A DNA stretch of 64,000 nt from an uncultured Spirochaetota bacterium (GTDB lineage: Bacteria; Spirochaetota; Spirochaetia; JAFGXN01), in assembly GCA_944388995.1 (NCBI GenBank), contig CALXKN010000007.1, forward strand, positions 4,732-68,731. Reading direction: 5' to 3'. Below are positions 32,227 to 39,528 of the stretch, piece after piece. Within the stretch, counting starts at the first letter, position 1, and the number at the start of each line of letters is the position of its first letter. Position numbers and translations under genes: made by a program. The notes under the pieces are model-generated. The model saw only the letters and a list, made by a program, of their open reading frames with translations, did no database searches and was not told the DNA's origin.

Positions 32227-33717
32227 TTAATCCTTGTATTTGATTAAACGTATCTTCCGCTTCGAAACCCGAAAGAACGGAATTAAAAACGCAAAATATC
32301 CCGCCGCAACCGCAATCCAAACCGCGAAGGAACCTCTCGGAACCGTCCGCACGGCAACATCCCTGTCCGTCAAAAAATATGCAGACAGAGGATCTGATTT
32401 GACTTTTTTCATTATACTATCGAAACCGTCTTCTGTAAATATTTCGATCAAGATTTTTTCGTTACGGACGGAATTCCCTTCGTAAAAAAAGTGCGGAACC
32501 GTCACTTCATACCCGGGCGGCGGCAGCCGTTCCAGCTTTTCATAGCGGTAACTGTACTGAAAGACCTTTTCTTCAAGGTAACCGGCAGCGTTTAAAGTCC
32601 CCCGCTGCTGATTTTGAGTTTTTTCATAAATTTCTTCATAAGTTCTTGACCCAAAAAGCGGATCTGCCTTCTGCGCAGGATTTTCCGCCGGAACTGACAC
32701 CACAAAAATAAGCGCGCCGATTGGAAGAGCTGCCGTCAGCACTCCCAAAACTATTTCGGCAGCAGCACACTTCCACGGCAAACGATAATCCTTTCCGAAA
32801 AAAGGTTTTGGAATAAACTGAAACCCGTGCGGTCGGTTCACTTCCCGGACCACGGAAACAAACGCCAGAGAAAGACCGAAAAGCGACATTGCAACAGCAG
32901 CAACTGCCGCCAAACGCTCTCCGGGAAAAAACAAAGGAGGCAGAACGGCGCAAAAAACCGCGGCTGAAAGCTGCCCCGCAATCGATTTTTTGTCCTTCCC
33001 GGAAAACAAATCGACGCCGTTGAAAGTAAAGTACTCCCGCTGCGGCTGCCATTTCCGCCACAGAGACAGAAACACATTGCCGATAAAAACAGCCGCGCTC
33101 AGAACAAGAGCGTTACCGGAAAACAGCGCGGCCGCAAAAAGCACCGCCAAGAATAAAAGTCCTTTTCGGGATTTTCGTTGCACAAAGGACGAGAAAATCC
33201 AGGTAAGAATAACCGCTGACGTAAAAAAAACCGATTCCGCAACCGGCCGATGCTGTTCAACGGCGACCGCAGGCGCATCCGGGTACTCCATATTCCACTC
33301 CCTCAGCACTTCGGCAGAAAGCGGTTCTTTCAGTATAAACAACCTCATCGGACGTCCGTCTTCCTCAAAATCAAAAAGTTGCGGCAGCCGGGTCAAAAAC
33401 GGCGTTAGCCGATCGTCATCCGGTAAAAACCGATCCTTCAGCTCGCCTATGGTCAGCCTTTCCGGATTATAATGATCCAACTGAATCTCAATGTCGGCAG
33501 CGGAAAAAAAATCGATCCCTTTTTCTTTCAAAAAAAGTGCCGGAGCATCGCCCGATTCCGCCGGGAAAGCCGCAAACGGCGTGGCAACGTCCGCTCCCCC
33601 GTCACGCAGAAAAAGCAAAACCGCCGCGCTGCCGAATAAACAAAATAAAGAGAAGATGATCGCCGCTCGCGCGATTTTCATATGGCGCTGATTGAAAAAA
33701 GACGGAGACTCCTCCAT
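32227..33717 (-). CDS. hypothetical polytopic membrane protein immediately upstream of, and abutting, rnfC
   Basis: 496 aa, about 8 hydrophobic segments, large soluble loops. No recognisable catalytic motif. Confidence 0.5.
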   Translation of the reverse strand: MEESPSFFNQRHMKIARAAIIFSLFCLFGSAAVLLFLRDGGADVATPFAAFPAESGDAPALFLKEKGIDFFSAADIEIQLDHYNPERLTIGELKDRFLPDDDRLTPFLTRLPQLFDFEEDGRPMRLFILKEPLSAEVLREWNMEYPDAPAVAVEQHRPVAESVFFTSAVILTWIFSSFVQRKSRKGLLFLAVLFAAALFSGNALVLSAAVFIGNVFLSLWRKWQPQREYFTFNGVDLFSGKDKKSIAGQLSAAVFCAVLPPLFFPGERLAAVAAVAMSLFGLSLAFVSVVREVNRPHGFQFIPKPFFGKDYRLPWKCAAAEIVLGVLTAALPIGALIFVVSVPAENPAQKADPLFGSRTYEEIYEKTQNQQRGTLNAAGYLEEKVFQYSYRYEKLERLPPPGYEVTVPHFFYEGNSVRNEKILIEIFTEDGFDSIMKKVKSDPLSAYFLTDRDVAVRTVPRGSFAVWIAVAAGYFAFLIPFFRVSKRKIRLIKYKD

Positions 33718-33797
33718 AAATACTGATTATATAAAAAAACTCGTTAAAGTAAATAAAAAGAGTTCACAAATTCACAAAAAGGGACTATAATTTCAGA

Positions 33798-34652
33798 ATG
33801 AGAATTCGGCTTCCCGCATTATTCCAACGAAAAAGGATAAAAGTTTACGCTTTGGTCGGTCCTGCGGGGACGGGGAAGAGTTTTCGTTCCAAATTAGTTG
33901 CCGACTCACACAATATCGACATGATTGTCGACGACGGTTTGCTGATCAAAAACCGCCGGATTCTGGCAGGCACTTCGGCGAAAAAGGCAGACTCTTATTT
34001 GGGAGCGGTTCGGATTGCTATTTTCGAGGACCTCTTTCACAGAGAAGAAGTGAAAAAAGCCATTGAAGAGCAAAAACCGAAATCGATTTTGATATTGGGA
34101 ACCAGCGATAAAATGATTACCCGTATCTGCAAACGGCTGGATCTGCCGCTTCCGTTCCTCACCATCAATATTAACGACATTGCCTCAAAAGAAGAAATCG
34201 AAAAGGCCGTCAGCGCCCGTAAAAGCGGAAAGCACGTCATTCCGGCTCCCATCATTGAAGTGGAAAAACGTTACCCCTCTTCGGCTATCAGCGCCCTGCT
34301 TCTTTCGTTTTCAAGAAATATTTTTTCCAAAAAAAAACGCTTCATCGAAAAGACTATTGTTCAACCCGATTACGAAACCCCGGCCGGTTCCATCACTATT
34401 TCGGAAGCAGCACTGACACAAATGCTGATGCACTGCACGGAGGAATTCGACTCCTCTATCAAAATAAAAAGACTTTCAATTAAGGAAAACGGCAACACCT
34501 ATTCGCTGAAATTGGGACTGGAGGTGCCCATTCATTCGTCGCTTCCCTTCCGCCTGACAGAACTGCGTCATTTTATTATTAAAAATATAGAAAAATATAG
34601 TGGAATTCTTCTGGAAAAAGTCGATATTAATATCGTGAGTATGTCTCAATAA
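33798..34652 (+). CDS. hypothetical fusion protein: N-terminal P-loop NTPase-like module plus C-terminal Asp23/Gls24-like domain
   Basis: Walker A VGPAGTGKS near the N-terminus and a Walker B-like SILILGTSD. C-terminal about 100 aa (GSITISEAALTQMLMHC...LEKVDINIVS) resembles the Asp23/alkaline-shock-protein fold pattern. Confidence 0.5.
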   Translation: MRIRLPALFQRKRIKVYALVGPAGTGKSFRSKLVADSHNIDMIVDDGLLIKNRRILAGTSAKKADSYLGAVRIAIFEDLFHREEVKKAIEEQKPKSILILGTSDKMITRICKRLDLPLPFLTININDIASKEEIEKAVSARKSGKHVIPAPIIEVEKRYPSSAISALLLSFSRNIFSKKKRFIEKTIVQPDYETPAGSITISEAALTQMLMHCTEEFDSSIKIKRLSIKENGNTYSLKLGLEVPIHSSLPFRLTELRHFIIKNIEKYSGILLEKVDINIVSMSQ

Positions 34653-34675
34653 TTCGCAAAAAGAGGAATCGAACC

Positions 34676-36121
34676 ATGAAACGACTTTTATTCATTTTTT
34701 TGATTACCGCATTATCCGTCTCCGGCTTTGCTCAATTCTCGGACAAAATCGTTGAAAGTAAATATTACCGCGTCTTCTTTCAGGAGAATGAACAGGAAGC
34801 GGTACTGACCGCTCAAAAACTTGACGCCTACTTCGATTTTTACAACAGCTATTTTCATTTTGATACAAGCGCGATGCCCTCCCGGCTGAACGTCAAAATT
34901 CTTGATTCAAAATCCGCATACGCCGATTATGTTTCCGCTTCAACAACCGTAAGCAATCCGGTTTCGTCATTCTTATTTATCCAGTATCGGGATGCGTCTA
35001 AAAGCGAACTGATCGGCTACAAAAACAATAATCCCGATTTTGAAGATACTCTGAGTCATTACAGCTTTATTCAGTTTTTCCGGAATTTTATTACCAATCC
35101 TCCGCTTTGGCTGGAAAAGGGTTTTGCCGTCTATTTCGGAAAATCGTTTTATTCTCCTTCAAAAAGCGCCGTTATTTACAAAGAAAATCTGACATGGTTG
35201 AACACCCTGAAATCATTTCTCGACGCTGATCCGCCCGCTTTAATCGACTTAAATACACTCTTTTCAATGAATACCGAAGAAGTGTCCGAAAACAGTGATT
35301 TGTTTTACGCTCAATCCTGGGGACTTGTCAAATTTCTTATCGAAAATCCGAAAGCAGTTTATAACCGCGTTATTTGGGACTCGATTAACAAACTTTCCCC
35401 GGACGCATCAAAAACCCAAAACGAAGAAAATGTCAAACGGTCATTTGCATGGCTTGATTCAGCTGAATTTTCGAAAGATTTTTACGAATACATTACCGCT
35501 TTAAAAACATTCCCCCAACTGGTTGACAGCGGTATCGCTCTTTATGAAAAAGAGAAATATGATGAAGCAAAAATGGCTTTAATCAAAGCTGTCACAATGG
35601 AAGACACAAATTACATTCCATATTATTATCTCGGATTAATCCATTATAATACGGAAGATTACGCAATGGCTGATTTTTACTACAACTCCGCACTGCAGAT
35701 GAACGGCGATAAGGCCATTTGCTACTACGCACTGGGAGTCAACGCTTTTGCCGAACAGGATTACGAAAGATCTGTCAAATATTTAAAGACAGCTGTCGCC
35801 TGCTCTCCCGAATACCGGGAAAGAACGGATAAGATCATCGATAATATCCGCACCATTTTAAGACTGCAAAACCGCACCATGGATATTGAAGCTATCGAAC
35901 CGTATCAAATACCAACCGAAGAAAGGAAAGAAGCGGCTCCGGTCAGTCCGGATATCACCGTTACCACAACCGCTCCGGAAGCAGCCGAAGCTCCGGTGAC
36001 GATTGAGGATGAATCTCTGGCGGAAGAAGCGATCGACGCCCCCGTTCAGCCGGAGGAAGAGGATGAAGTCGGGCGGCTGCGCTTGGATAAAGATACAGGA
36101 GAATATATCCTGATCAACTGA
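34676..36121 (+). CDS. hypothetical secreted protein with TPR repeats and an acidic C-terminal tail
   Basis: Signal peptide MKRLLFIFLITALSVSGFAQ. Central TPR-like repeats (YYYLGLIHYNTEDYAMADFYYNSALQMNGDKAICYYALGV...). Final about 60 aa rich in E/P/A/T. Confidence 0.5.
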   Translation: MKRLLFIFLITALSVSGFAQFSDKIVESKYYRVFFQENEQEAVLTAQKLDAYFDFYNSYFHFDTSAMPSRLNVKILDSKSAYADYVSASTTVSNPVSSFLFIQYRDASKSELIGYKNNNPDFEDTLSHYSFIQFFRNFITNPPLWLEKGFAVYFGKSFYSPSKSAVIYKENLTWLNTLKSFLDADPPALIDLNTLFSMNTEEVSENSDLFYAQSWGLVKFLIENPKAVYNRVIWDSINKLSPDASKTQNEENVKRSFAWLDSAEFSKDFYEYITALKTFPQLVDSGIALYEKEKYDEAKMALIKAVTMEDTNYIPYYYLGLIHYNTEDYAMADFYYNSALQMNGDKAICYYALGVNAFAEQDYERSVKYLKTAVACSPEYRERTDKIIDNIRTILRLQNRTMDIEAIEPYQIPTEERKEAAPVSPDITVTTTAPEAAEAPVTIEDESLAEEAIDAPVQPEEEDEVGRLRLDKDTGEYILIN

Positions 36122-36142
36122 TAACGCAAAGCGTTCGATAAG

Positions 36143-36180
36143 CGGCGGACAAATCAGAATGATTGTCCGCCGTTTTTTTT
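36143..36180 (+). terminator. rho-independent terminator of the plus-strand two-gene island
   Basis: Stem CGGCGGACAA/TTGTCCGCCG (36143-36152 and 36163-36172) with 10-nt loop, followed by T8 (36173-36180). Overlaps the 3' end of the convergent nucleotidyltransferase gene. Confidence 0.65.
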
Positions 36181-37314
36181 ACCGTCATCATTCGAATCTT
36201 TGCCGGCCTTCTTTTTAGAAGATCGAAAACGCCGTTTTTTGCCGGAACCGGATCGTCTCTCTTTCGGTTTTACTCCGTCGCGTAAATCAAAAATCATCCG
36301 AACGGCTCCCTCAATTTGAGAAACCGGAAGTTGCAACGGTTTTTCAAATTCTTTGCAAAATGCCTTCTTTTCGCTAAAATTCTCAAACCATCCTGCCTCC
36401 TGTCGAAACGGAGGCAAAAACACTTTAAAAAAGTGAAACAGTAAAACATCGCGTTCGGGAAACGAATCCGCCCCGGAAGCTGAAACCTCTGCATCCAAAA
36501 GCATCATTTCAGCATAAAAGGTTTTTCTCACTGTCTTTGAAGCGGACAAGGCTGAAGAAAGATTAGGCAAAAAAAACGGCATCAAATTCAAGTCGTCGAT
36601 TTGTTCAAAAACGGCTGTAGCCTTTCCCGAAGAAAGAATTTTAAAAAATTCTTCTGTTAAACGCGAAACAGAAACTGTTGCCAACAATGACGCCTTTTTT
36701 CTGAGAACCGCTTTCATTTTATGCGGAATTTTCAAACCGCACTTGGCGGCATATTTTGCGGCGCGCAGCATTCGCACCGGATCAGAATCAAAAATAGTTT
36801 CCAAAGGAATGACATTAACAAGTTTGCCGTTTTTTAAATCCCGAACTCCCCCGACGTAATCAATGAGCTGTTCCTTTTCGGGATCGTAAAACAAGGCGTT
36901 CACCGTAAAATCGCGTCTTCTGACATCTTCTTCAATGGATCCGTACACCGCATTGAAGTTTCCAGAAGAAACCGCTCGAAATGTTGTCACTTCCACTATA
37001 TAGCGCCCGGGGAAAATAACATGAGCCAACTTGAACCGTTTCCCGATAATCCAGGCATTGGGGAAAATTTTACGGATACGGTTCGGAACGGCATCGGTAG
37101 CGACATCAAAATCTTTCGGAATTTTGTTTAAAAGCAAATCCCTGACAGCGCCTCCGACAATATACGCCTGATATCCGGATTTTTTTAATATCCGCACCAC
37201 TTCAAGCGCTTGCGGCGCAATCATTTTACGACGAAGAGAGTGTTCATCCTTTGTATAGACGACAGCAACCGGAATTCGTTTGCCGTCGGAACCGGTTCCG
37301 TACCTTTGAATCAT
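36154..37314 (-). CDS. poly(A) polymerase / CCA-adding tRNA nucleotidyltransferase family protein (PcnB-like) with a basic C-terminal tail
   Basis: Head-domain motif GGAVRDLLL...DFDVAT. RRDFTVNAL block. K/R-rich C-terminus. Confidence 0.7.
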   Translation of the reverse strand: MIQRYGTGSDGKRIPVAVVYTKDEHSLRRKMIAPQALEVVRILKKSGYQAYIVGGAVRDLLLNKIPKDFDVATDAVPNRIRKIFPNAWIIGKRFKLAHVIFPGRYIVEVTTFRAVSSGNFNAVYGSIEEDVRRRDFTVNALFYDPEKEQLIDYVGGVRDLKNGKLVNVIPLETIFDSDPVRMLRAAKYAAKCGLKIPHKMKAVLRKKASLLATVSVSRLTEEFFKILSSGKATAVFEQIDDLNLMPFFLPNLSSALSASKTVRKTFYAEMMLLDAEVSASGADSFPERDVLLFHFFKVFLPPFRQEAGWFENFSEKKAFCKEFEKPLQLPVSQIEGAVRMIFDLRDGVKPKERRSGSGKKRRFRSSKKKAGKDSNDDGKKNGGQSF

Positions 37315-37320
37315 GATAAA

Positions 37321-39528
37321 TCAGCGAAACGTAACGGACGTGACCAAAGTCAAATTTTCGGAACTGTTTCCAATCAGAATTTCATAAACCCCAGACTCTG
37401 TTATCCATCGGCTTTCTTCTGTATCGTAATAACGGAAGGAGTCTGCCGTTAAAGGCATCGAGACGGATTTTGTCTCTCCCGGTTCCAAACGGACTTTTTC
37501 AAAGCCCTTCAATTCTTTTTGAACGCGGTCAACTTTTGAATCAACGGCATGTACATAAAGCTGCACAACCTCCGCTCCAGCACAATCCCCGGTATTGGTA
37601 ACAGAAACAGTCACTTTGATTTCTTCTCCTTGAGAAAACGAAGAGCGGGAAACTTTCAGCTGATCGATTTTAAAGTCGGTATAGGACAAGCCGAATCCGA
37701 ACGGAAACTGCGCTTTTTTAGCCGCTTTATCAAGATACCGGTACCCCAAATACCTTCCTTCGGCGTAAACCATATGATCCATCCGATCATAAGAAACGGG
37801 ATCGTTTTCAAAAAGACCGAAATTCTTCGATTTCAGCATTTTCGGATCGCCTCCGAAAACCTTAAAACGCCCGACTCCCAACGGAGAAACAATGCGGTAT
37901 TTTGTATCGCGAGGCCAAACAATCAATTTATCGGGATTTTCAAGCTGTGCTGCGACGGGACCGAAATCTTCCCATTGTTTTACCATTGAAAACGGCAGCT
38001 TCCCGGAGGGATTGACATCTCCGAAAACGATATGCGCCAATGCGGCGTCCGCCCATTTTCCGGCATACCCTAAATGAATAAACCCTTTGACTTTATGAAT
38101 CCAGCTCTCCGTTTCGACACCCCCGCCATAATTACTGACAACAACCAGATTCGGATTCCATCGGGAAATTTTATCGATATCCCTCAGATTTTTTGCTTTC
38201 ATCTCCCAAGGACGGTCATTGGCCTCTCCTTCACCAAAAACCCAATATCCGGCAAAATAGAGAACCACGTCGGCTCCTTTAATAGATGCGATATCGGAAG
38301 CCGGACATTGATAAATTTTGGTTTCGCGGTCGCGGTATTTTCTGAAGCCGGAAAGCGCATTAACCGTCATCAGTCGTCCCGGGCGACCGGTAAAAACAGT
38401 GCACGCACCAACTGTTGTCGTATTTAGATAATATCCGTTCCAGCCGACCAATGCCACCCTTACCGGTTCTGTCTGCGAAACCGGCAGAATATCGTCTTCA
38501 TTTTTTAAAAGAATGATTCCTTCTTCCGCAAGGCGACAGGCGAGAGCATCATGTTCCTTCGGATTTTCTTCCAAAGCAGTATTTTTTTGCGGTCCGTCAT
38601 AAATACCGCAATCGATATAAGTTCTCAGAATACGAAACACTTTTTCATCCAACAAAGTTTCTTTATCGGGAATATTCAAAGCGGCAATTTCCTTCGGGGA
38701 AAAATACCCGCTGGAATTCGGCATCTCCAAATCCAAACCGGCCGTAAACGATCCTTCTGTAGAATAAATGGAAAGCCAATCGGAAACGACAAAACCCTTG
38801 AAACCGAGATCATTTTTCAAAACATCAGTGATTAAGCGTTTATTCTCCGCCATAGGAAAGCCGTTAACCGGATTGTACCCCGTCATAACAGCGCCGACAC
38901 CGGCTTTTACGGCCGCTTCAAAGGGTGGCAGATAAATTTCACGCAAAGTTCTTTCATCAATATCGCTGCTGACACCATGGCGATCGAAATCCTGATTGTT
39001 TGCCAAATAGTGCTTGACGCAGGCAATCACTTTTTGCCCCTGCATCGCTTTAATGTAAGAGGCCGTCATTTCAGAGCTCAGGTAGGGATCTTCGCCCATG
39101 TATTCAAAGTTGCGTCCGCAGTTTGGCATGCGGTAAATATTGACTCCAGGTCCTAAAATAATACGCTCGCCGCGCGCAACCGCCTCTTTTGCAACCGCCT
39201 CTGCCGCCAAAGCCATTGCCTCCCGGTTCCATGAAGCAGTCACCACTAATGTTGACGGGAAAGAGGTGCCGTCAAACGAGACTCCCATCGTCGAATCCTG
39301 GAAATGAACAGGTGGAAGACCCAAACGCTCAACTTCTCCCTGAACTTTCCACTCGGAACCGCGGATAAATGAAACTTTTTCATCATAAGTCATTTCATTT
39401 GTAATCAGGCGGGCTTTCTCGTCTGCGGATAAATCCAAGCTCAAAACCTCCTGAAGAAATGTTTCCTGATCAGAGTAAGATGTACAGGCAAAAACTAAAA
39501 AAACCAAAAAAAAGGCAGGAATTTTCAT
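37321..39528 (-). CDS. glycoside hydrolase family 3 beta-glucosidase (BglX-like), secreted
   Basis: Signal peptide. GH3 blocks KHYLANNQD and GFVVSDW (Asp nucleophile region). 735 aa with a C-terminal Fn3-like domain. Confidence 0.85.
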   Translation of the reverse strand: MKIPAFFLVFLVFACTSYSDQETFLQEVLSLDLSADEKARLITNEMTYDEKVSFIRGSEWKVQGEVERLGLPPVHFQDSTMGVSFDGTSFPSTLVVTASWNREAMALAAEAVAKEAVARGERIILGPGVNIYRMPNCGRNFEYMGEDPYLSSEMTASYIKAMQGQKVIACVKHYLANNQDFDRHGVSSDIDERTLREIYLPPFEAAVKAGVGAVMTGYNPVNGFPMAENKRLITDVLKNDLGFKGFVVSDWLSIYSTEGSFTAGLDLEMPNSSGYFSPKEIAALNIPDKETLLDEKVFRILRTYIDCGIYDGPQKNTALEENPKEHDALACRLAEEGIILLKNEDDILPVSQTEPVRVALVGWNGYYLNTTTVGACTVFTGRPGRLMTVNALSGFRKYRDRETKIYQCPASDIASIKGADVVLYFAGYWVFGEGEANDRPWEMKAKNLRDIDKISRWNPNLVVVSNYGGGVETESWIHKVKGFIHLGYAGKWADAALAHIVFGDVNPSGKLPFSMVKQWEDFGPVAAQLENPDKLIVWPRDTKYRIVSPLGVGRFKVFGGDPKMLKSKNFGLFENDPVSYDRMDHMVYAEGRYLGYRYLDKAAKKAQFPFGFGLSYTDFKIDQLKVSRSSFSQGEEIKVTVSVTNTGDCAGAEVVQLYVHAVDSKVDRVQKELKGFEKVRLEPGETKSVSMPLTADSFRYYDTEESRWITESGVYEILIGNSSENLTLVTSVTFR

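Follow-up and report, generated by a model that had tools for sequence, protein, structure and literature searches.

We analysed a two-gene locus in a 64,000-nucleotide (nt) stretch of DNA from an uncultured Spirochaetota bacterium (GenBank assembly GCA_944388995.1, contig CALXKN010000007.1, positions 4,732 to 68,731 of the forward strand), referred to here as the window. Coordinates are window positions unless a locus handle precedes them. Gene 1 encodes a cytoplasmic protein in which a P-loop domain is joined to an Asp23-like domain, and gene 2 encodes a secreted protein with tetratricopeptide repeats (TPRs). They are the sole sizeable plus-strand genes amid two minus-strand runs. The left run, which ends at 33717, is the Rnf operon with a gene for a 496-amino-acid (aa) membrane protein at its head; the right run, which starts at 36154, comprises pcnB and then a gene for a GH3 glycosidase. 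A sequence-only reading of the locus had described a plus-strand pair with its own terminator between minus-strand arrays. This description held, as both open reading frames (ORFs) were located at the exact positions and a hairpin followed by U8 was found. Because each has hundreds of full-length homologues, both ORFs can be taken to be real genes rather than chance ORFs. The features of the locus are as follows:

33763-33791, plus strand: sigma-70-like promoter TTCACA-17-TATAAT, 11/12 consensus match
33798-34652, plus strand: gene 1, ORF for a 284-aa cytoplasmic P-loop / linker / Asp23-like protein
34662-34667, plus strand: Shine-Dalgarno sequence AGAGGA of gene 2, 8 nt 5' of the ATG, read off the sequence
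34676-36121, plus strand: gene 2, ORF for a 481-aa secreted DUF1570-like / TPR protein
36143-36180, plus strand: intrinsic terminator, a 10-13 bp GC-rich hairpin (36143-36172) followed by U8

The intergenic gap between gene 1 and gene 2 is 23 nt. Upstream of gene 1, in a spacer of 80 nt, the -10 hexamer TATAAT ends 6 nt 5' of the ATG, and the gene 1 start is without a convincing Shine-Dalgarno sequence. L001 and L002, the closest relatives, with gene 1 proteins ~80% identical to that of the window, have kept both promoter hexamers and their distance to the ATG. As the -10 hexamer is only 6 nt from the ATG here and in the relatives, the gene 1 mRNA is probably leaderless, judging from promoter-ATG geometry alone. 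The terminator had a folding energy of -22.3 kcal/mol (z -5.3), which none of 200 shuffled sequences equalled, and was also present, with sequence changes, in both L001 and L002. Its loop of more than 8 nt made a consensus scan pass over it. The stop codon of the convergent neighbour lies inside the hairpin loop, and both convergent units share the same 40 nt. This neighbour (36154-37314, minus strand) scored 329 bits on TIGR01942, the model of the pcnB subfamily (cut-off 305.65). The locus is a self-contained, vertically inherited and widely conserved spirochaete operon consisting of a promoter, gene 1, gene 2 and an intrinsic terminator.

The GC content dips to 0.42-0.45 across gene 1, gene 2 and pcnB (34001-38000), compared with 0.49-0.56 in the flanks. 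Recent horizontal transfer was considered as the cause of the dip (0.42 against ~0.51) and is disfavoured, as relatives with ~80% protein identity keep the block in the same synteny.

The gene 1 protein and its family

Database searches yielded 4322 homologues of gene 1, typically 284-300 aa long. A pattern scan using one genome per species found relatives in at least 591 species genomes; the 80 that were listed were all spirochaetes or unclassified metagenome-assembled genomes (MAGs), with Treponema, Sphaerochaeta, Rectinemataceae and Sediminispirochaeta among the listed genera and families. A profile of the P-loop domain recruited 853 representatives at 50% identity from 1.84 billion representative proteins. 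Nearly all of the 150 listed relatives measured 264-300 aa, and the fused architecture is therefore the norm. Cluster look-ups placed further members in Bacillota (Clostridiales, Peptococcia, Schwartzia, Dethiobacter, Formimonas), Atribacterota, Synergistota and Dependentiae. The database labels were "hypothetical", "Asp23/Gls24 family envelope stress response protein", "AAA family ATPase" and "YloU/adenylate kinase family enzyme", the JGI and PGAP annotations between them covering both halves of the fusion. The sequence-only reading had not recognised the fusion from any described family. This was correct insofar as our searches turned up neither a curated family model nor a solved structure of a P-loop/Asp23 fusion, nor, in open-access text, a paper on one, but the family has thousands of members in several phyla, and its halves are machine-labelled. 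The gene 1 of the window is no unique invention: it belongs, as an ordinary orthologue, to a large multi-phylum family that is uncharacterised, and it has stayed at its ancestral place in the genome. Its parts are as follows, all on the plus strand:

33840-34223, plus strand: kinase-type P-loop domain, residues 15-142
33858-33881, plus strand: Walker A, G21-S28, inside VGPAGTGKS (residues 20-28)
33930-33935, plus strand: invariant D45-D46, after strand 2
34224-34391, plus strand: conserved linker, residues 143-198, from alignments; predicted local distance difference test (pLDDT) below 50
34392-34649, plus strand: Asp23/AmaP-type alpha-beta-beta-alpha-beta domain, residues 199-284

The P-loop domain has a Walker A motif, GxxxxGK[ST], between strand 1 and helix 1 together with a parallel sheet, as is typical of the P-loop nucleoside triphosphatase (NTPase) fold of the kinase-GTPase class. 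In the alignment, the residues invariant across phyla in this domain were G21, G24, G26, K27, S28, D45, D46, G47, G58, S60, K62, F76, T102, S103, M106 and R141. All cross-phylum invariant residues fell in the P-loop domain and the linker, whereas the Asp23 part was variable. The motif ILILGTSD (residues 97-104) had been proposed as Walker B-like. As relatives have E, I, H, A, R, T, K or G in place of D104, and T102 and S103 alone are invariant in the motif, it is not a canonical Walker B. In the AlphaFold2 (AF2) model, the domain is minimal (~130 aa), with no lid and no separate acceptor-binding domain. In dephospho-CoA, shikimate, gluconate and polynucleotide kinases, the acceptor-activating Asp follows strand 2. 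The invariant Asp-Asp of gene 1 occupies the same place, and this is why we infer a kinase-type mechanism.

Sequence-level membership of gene 1 was not found in any of CoaE, the shikimate, gluconate and CMP kinases, or T4 PNK/Clp1. Compared with these P-loop kinases, the gene 1 domain is much smaller, lacks a lid or nucleoside monophosphate (NMP)-binding subdomain and has a GTS motif where an acidic Walker B is usual. Mur ligase and FPGS domains matched it as well as the kinases did, and gluconokinase and cytidylate kinase models gave marginal matches. Sequence searches of the PDB with the protein and then with the family profile returned just Walker-A-level matches, to ABC transporters and Vps4. 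Three specific assignments were rejected. An AAA+ ATPase (PF00004) reached 15.7 bits against a cut-off of 21.2, aligning residues 19-63 with profile positions 3-45, and the model has no AAA lid. An adenylate or NMP kinase, as in the JGI label, reached 13 bits against 315, and the NMP-binding and lid subdomains are lacking. To HPr kinase/phosphorylase-like P-loop proteins there was neither sequence nor fold similarity. No transmembrane (TM) segment was found in gene 1. We also considered whether the linker or the N-terminus might form an amphipathic helix that binds membranes and dropped the idea, as a hydrophobic-moment scan showed no consistent peak.

The linker carries the motifs GKHVIPxP (H146 and P149 invariant) and EKxVVxPxY (P190 and G197 invariant). 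The AF2 model, built from the family alignment, comprised the P-loop domain (15-142), a poorly modelled linker (143-198) and an alpha-beta-beta-alpha-beta domain (200-284) with the elements H203-217, E222-231, E234-244, H249-268 and E271-283 at pLDDT 76-90, which is the arrangement that defines the Asp23 fold. The window protein had no match to the Pfam Asp23 family (PF03780, gathering score 28 bits) at E<=0.1. PF03780 was matched by 30 of the 35 aligned homologues (E<=0.01; best 7e-7), and Bacillota members of the family reached 35.5-50.2 bits. The same number of homologues (30/35) matched the NCBIfam AmaP model NF033218 (best E 2.3e-7); in the window protein, residues 174-279 aligned with the C-terminal two-thirds of this model at 13.8 bits (cut-off 55). 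The Asp23 membership of the window protein would thus go through the family alignment, by transitive homology, making the resemblance real but indirect. The description of gene 1 as a P-loop/Asp23-like fusion was upheld by the invariant Walker A, the PF03780 matches of the homologues and the modelled domain.

At the family level, the C-terminal ~85-100 residues of gene 1 are homologous to Asp23/Gls24 proteins (Staphylococcus aureus Asp23; Bacillus subtilis YqhY/RfaA and YloU/RfaB) and have the same alpha-beta-beta-alpha-beta layout. A canonical Asp23 is a small stand-alone protein, typically co-operonic with fakA, accBC or an AmaP anchor, whereas the module of gene 1 makes up the smaller and least conserved part of a protein of 284 aa and has no such company. 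AmaP is named as a membrane anchor and lacks a P-loop; gene 1, which has a P-loop and no TM-like segment, does not qualify as an AmaP protein. Whole-model fold searches were dominated by the C-terminal domains of MamM and CzcD and by RbfA and were uninformative on function. The listed PDB fold matches were all generic for the fold class and included no solved Asp23-family structure.

One clade of the family lacks the Asp23 domain. It consists of at least 120 clusters of 208-246-aa Spirochaetia proteins (P0448-P0567) from high-GC (56-66%) soil and peat 'Spirochaetia bacterium' MAGs. These proteins end just past EKTVVRPEYG with a basic tail and keep the linker, and their genes still precede gene 2 in seven of seven loci (L157, L168, L170 and L173-L176; e.g., L173:1951-2586). 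Because this clade retains the P-loop domain and the linker, the Asp23 module is separable, and these two parts form the core of the protein.

Gene 2 and its linkage to gene 1

The gene 2 product can be divided into four parts, all on the plus strand:

34676-34732, plus strand: signal peptide, residues 1-19, hydrophobic window; predicted cleavage GFA|Q
34736-35500, plus strand: DUF1570/Peptidase_MA-like N-domain; degenerate zinc site H128-Y-S-F-I-Q133 replacing HExxH; PPLWLEKGFAVYF
35513-35875, plus strand: TPR region, ~residues 280-400
35888-36118, plus strand: E/P/A/T-rich tail, lineage-specific; ends in the conserved motif RLRLDKDTGEYILIN

The signal peptide, TPRs and E/P/A/T-rich tail that the sequence-only reading had listed were all present. 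The cleavage site is placed by the motif A-F-[AG]-Q in the alignment of the gene 2 family, in which Q20 is near-invariant. TPR_2 (PF07719) matched in two stretches with 40.7 bits (cut-off 27), and TPR_8 and TPR_1 also exceeded their cut-offs. The same reading had noted a non-TPR N-domain, which can now be further identified as a degenerate DUF1570/Peptidase_MA-like domain: residues 126-226 had sub-threshold matches to DUF1570 (15.6 against 22 bits) and Peptidase_MA_2 (17.9 against 32.4 bits). The homologues are mostly spirochaete proteins of 396-430 aa, many with precomputed matches to PF07607 and TPR models. In all 22 aligned family members, HExxH has degenerated to H-[YHQ]-x-[FCY]-[IVM]-Q. 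Because the motif is lost throughout, the family is predicted to consist of pseudo-peptidases, related to DUF1570/Peptidase_MA and not active members of it.

In common with DUF1570 (PF07607)/Peptidase_MA_2 proteins, gene 2 has a gluzincin-like N-domain, with TPRs behind it, and is exported; in contrast to them, it has lost HExxH. We also take it to be comparable to Escherichia coli BepA, an M48 peptidase with TPRs, by domain layout alone; there is no sequence relation between gene 2 and M48. No literature on the gene 2 family or DUF1570 was found in open-access text.

The acidic tail is limited to the closest relatives (P0122, P0126, P0130 and P0131) and absent from the 396-430-aa majority. 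Its last ~15 residues (36074-36118, residues ~467-481), RLRLDKDTGEYILIN, were conserved in P0122 and P0126 and more weakly in P0130. The conservation of this tail end suggests a short C-terminal interaction or sorting motif.

We estimated the linkage of the two genes from both sides. The gene 1-centred sample comprised 80 spirochaete species loci. The gene 2-centred sample comprised 80 metagenome-scan loci and three long contigs, 71 of them with upstream sequence, and its loci were just 31-50% identical to the window proteins. Around gene 2, the counts in informative loci were as follows:

gene 1 upstream, same strand: 71/71
pcnB convergent downstream: 48/55
RluD upstream, co-directional: 16/37

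Each of the three long contigs had gene 1 upstream of gene 2. Among the gene 1-centred loci, a gene 2 homologue was directly downstream in 37 of 80, and otherwise the convergent pcnB came next. The idea that the pair is conserved together was therefore borne out from the gene 2 side but not from the gene 1 side, nor in the seven neighbourhoods examined outside the spirochaetes, where no pair was seen. No other link in the block is as tight as that of gene 1 with gene 2, although general synteny accounts for a share of the signal. Gene 2 is an accessory found solely in the operon of gene 1, which itself often occurs without gene 2.

Clustering of the neighbours pointed to an ancestral spirochaete block. 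Its minus-strand part consists of Rnf...RnfC, a ~500-aa membrane protein and DUF212; its plus-strand part consists of RluD, gene 1 and gene 2, followed by pcnB (minus), Hydrolase_4 (minus) and RlmD (plus). A RluD-type gene (S4 + PseudoU_synth_2) was directly upstream of gene 1 and co-directional in 43 of 74 gene 1-centred loci, with gaps of -56 to +255 nt that were mostly under 50 (e.g., L046:4929-5948; L010-L080, L095, L097). Downstream, pcnB was convergent in 52 of 80 loci, with a TRAM/U5-methyltransferase (RlmD-like) gene nearby. In the 64-kb window, pcnB was present and none of RluD, DUF212, Hydrolase_4 and RlmD was found; the lineage of the window has lost these four parts of the block.

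In many spirochaetes, gene 1 is thus embedded among RNA-modification genes.

In ~11 sediment-derived loci (L149, L151, L155, L158, L163-L167, L172 and L177; e.g., L166:1765-2847), an AI-2E family transporter (PF01594, 183 bits, 360 aa) was inserted between gene 1 and gene 2. The order in these loci is cytoplasmic P-loop protein, membrane transporter, periplasmic TPR protein.

Seven neighbourhoods of gene 1 (x) outside the spirochaetes were as follows:

Rex, ferredoxin, x, OGG, GroESL
GDH, x, methylmalonyl-CoA mutase
Fur, x, DnaD, DnaI
ProRS, x, MiaB, MutS, MutL
RNase Y...YmdB...x
BcrAD, x, UDG, YchF
x convergent with beta-CASP RNase

No DAK2, ACC or AmaP genes were present in the ~170 loci examined. 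Gene 1 is a core gene of the housekeeping type and frequently occurs by itself.

Proposed function and rival explanations

[quoted passage not shown] Their biochemical role has been obscure ever since the family received its name; one member, RfaA, was shown just recently to be a proteolysis adaptor. The two Asp23 proteins of B. subtilis are encoded in conserved operons, alongside fakA (fatty-acid kinase) in one and accBC in the other; RfaA (YqhY) serves as the adaptor when ClpEP degrades AccC, YloU (RfaB) is co-operonic with the kinase FakA, and multimeric rings are predicted for both proteins (10.1101/2024.02.19.580884). In the YloU-FakA and YqhY-AccBC operons, an Asp23-type module is tied to an ATP-using enzyme, and in gene 1 the tie is a covalent fusion. 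The partner in gene 1 is a P-loop domain, as opposed to the DAK2 kinase and ATP-grasp carboxylase of the Bacillota operons, and lipid genes are not nearby.

On balance, gene 1 probably encodes an ATP-dependent kinase-type enzyme with an Asp23 accessory module, co-expressed in many spirochaetes with an exported, non-catalytic TPR scaffold. The P-loop domain would be the catalytic core and act as an ATP-dependent phosphotransferase, or at least as an NTPase. K27 and S28 would hold Mg-ATP, D45-D46 would stand in the place of the acceptor-activating Asp, and R141, K62, S60, T102 and S103 would make up the rest of the site. The Asp23 domain, dispensable in one clade, may serve as an accessory module for oligomerisation or partner binding, after the example of RfaA and YloU. 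Gene 2 would provide an exported, non-catalytic, probably periplasmic binding scaffold, and the two proteins may be physically or functionally coupled.

Several observations weigh against this reading. A conserved acidic Walker B is lacking in the gene 1 family, the window protein by itself is below every Pfam and NCBIfam cut-off, and the linker and domain arrangement are poorly modelled (predicted template modelling score 0.47). With regard to gene 2, the retention of pcnB in 48 of 55 loci makes the adjacency signal partly one of general synteny, the seven non-spirochaete neighbourhoods share no partner and none has gene 2, and gene 1 is cytoplasmic and gene 2 periplasmic with no constant membrane component. 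The coupling of the two genes may be no more than co-expression.

The genomic neighbours could point in another direction, namely to a nucleic-acid-directed enzyme that acts together with the RNA-modifying genes around it, either 5'-OH polynucleotide kinase-like or an RNA/ribosome-associated factor, whose Asp23-like domain would be a KH/RbfA-like binding module. RluD (43/74), PcnB (52/80) and the RlmD-like methyltransferase in spirochaetes agree with such a role, as do ProRS-x-MiaB-MutSL, RNase Y/YmdB-x, beta-CASP RNase, x-UDG-YchF, x-OGG and x-DnaD-DnaI in other phyla. We nevertheless consider it unlikely: housekeeping RNA/DNA genes commonly adjoin any core gene, the structural matches are generic and no better than those to small-molecule kinases or cation-transporter C-terminal domains, the window lineage is without RluD and RlmD throughout 64 kb, and the strict linkage to a secreted protein is left unexplained. 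By analogy with RfaA (YqhY), the predicted ring-forming ClpEP adaptor for AccC (10.1101/2024.02.19.580884), gene 1 might instead be a nucleotide-dependent switch or adaptor in which ATP controls Asp23-mediated assembly or the delivery of clients to a protease. A minimal P-loop domain with no lid, acceptor-binding domain or canonical Walker B acid would suit this role. It is made improbable by the strongest conservation (D45-D46, S60, K62, T102-S103 and R141), which resembles an active site, and by the Asp23-less clade, which shows that the P-loop part works by itself.

The sequence-only reading had proposed an envelope-stress or signalling pair. The annotation of the Asp23 family as cell-envelope related, the match of the C-terminal part of gene 1 to the AmaP model, the export and BepA-like layout (peptidase-like domain and TPRs) of gene 2, its invariable position behind gene 1 (71/71) and the AI-2E family transporter between the genes in ~11 loci are all in keeping with an envelope-stress or trans-envelope signalling pair. 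This proposal fared poorly, and we regard it as quite unlikely. Gene 1 has no TM segment; the pair has no constant membrane partner and no gene for a sensor, kinase or regulator beside it; what surrounds it is mostly RNA/DNA housekeeping genes, among them RluD, PcnB and RlmD; and gene 1 occurs without gene 2 in 43 of 80 spirochaete loci and in the seven non-spirochaete neighbourhoods. Furthermore, a clade with the pair intact has dispensed with the Asp23 domain, the sole 'envelope' link, and recent work connects Asp23 proteins with cytoplasmic lipid-synthesis enzymes, not stress sensing (10.1101/2024.02.19.580884). That connection could be extended to a lipid or fatty-acid kinase analogue, a one-polypeptide counterpart of YloU-FakA that would feed envelope lipid synthesis, with the co-operonic fakA and accBC of B. 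subtilis supplying the Rosetta-stone logic for the fusion. Gene 1 resembles the DAK2 domain of FakA in neither sequence nor fold, DegV/FakB or lipid genes were absent from every neighbourhood examined, and the idea is purely one of analogy, which leaves it very unlikely.

A bolder form of the kinase reading holds that the P-loop domain founds a new kinase family, with a lipid or envelope precursor or an RNA 5' end as the acceptor, and works with gene 2 in a new cytoplasm-to-periplasm route of envelope biogenesis. We would give this more specific version little credence. If it were true, the fusion would be a Rosetta stone for Asp23 domains as general regulators or scaffolds of ATP-dependent kinases. 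The fusion family as such is a testable lead that Asp23 modules work with ATP-dependent enzymes, and it defines a P-loop domain family with no Pfam model. For spirochaete biology, it offers a core gene in at least 591 species genomes and a strictly linked secreted partner, both of them unstudied.

Neighbouring genes

Searches with PADLOC and Rfam models across the whole window found nothing, and the PADLOC defence-system models gave zero matches for gene 1, gene 2 and the upstream membrane protein. In the same 80-nt spacer as the gene 1 promoter, a divergent promoter-like site, TTTACT-16-TATAAT (33753-33726), faces the membrane-protein/Rnf operon. The 496-aa protein (32227-33717, minus strand) has ~6 hydrophobic segments, and its gene is directly upstream of rnfC, apparently as the first gene of the Rnf operon. 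It belongs to no Pfam family, with a weak match to 'Sensor' (24.8 bits against a cut-off of 28.2). An iterative search found that at least 38 spirochaete loci have a homologue of 460-510 aa in this position; the counterpart genes in L095-L097 (491-512 aa) were also without a Pfam match. The protein is a candidate for an uncharacterised membrane subunit associated with Rnf. The listed start of rnfC (TTG at 32320) overlaps the gene for the 496-aa protein by 94 nt; an alternative start is an internal ATG at ~32224 (MKQRLKTF...), 2 nt after the stop codon of that gene.

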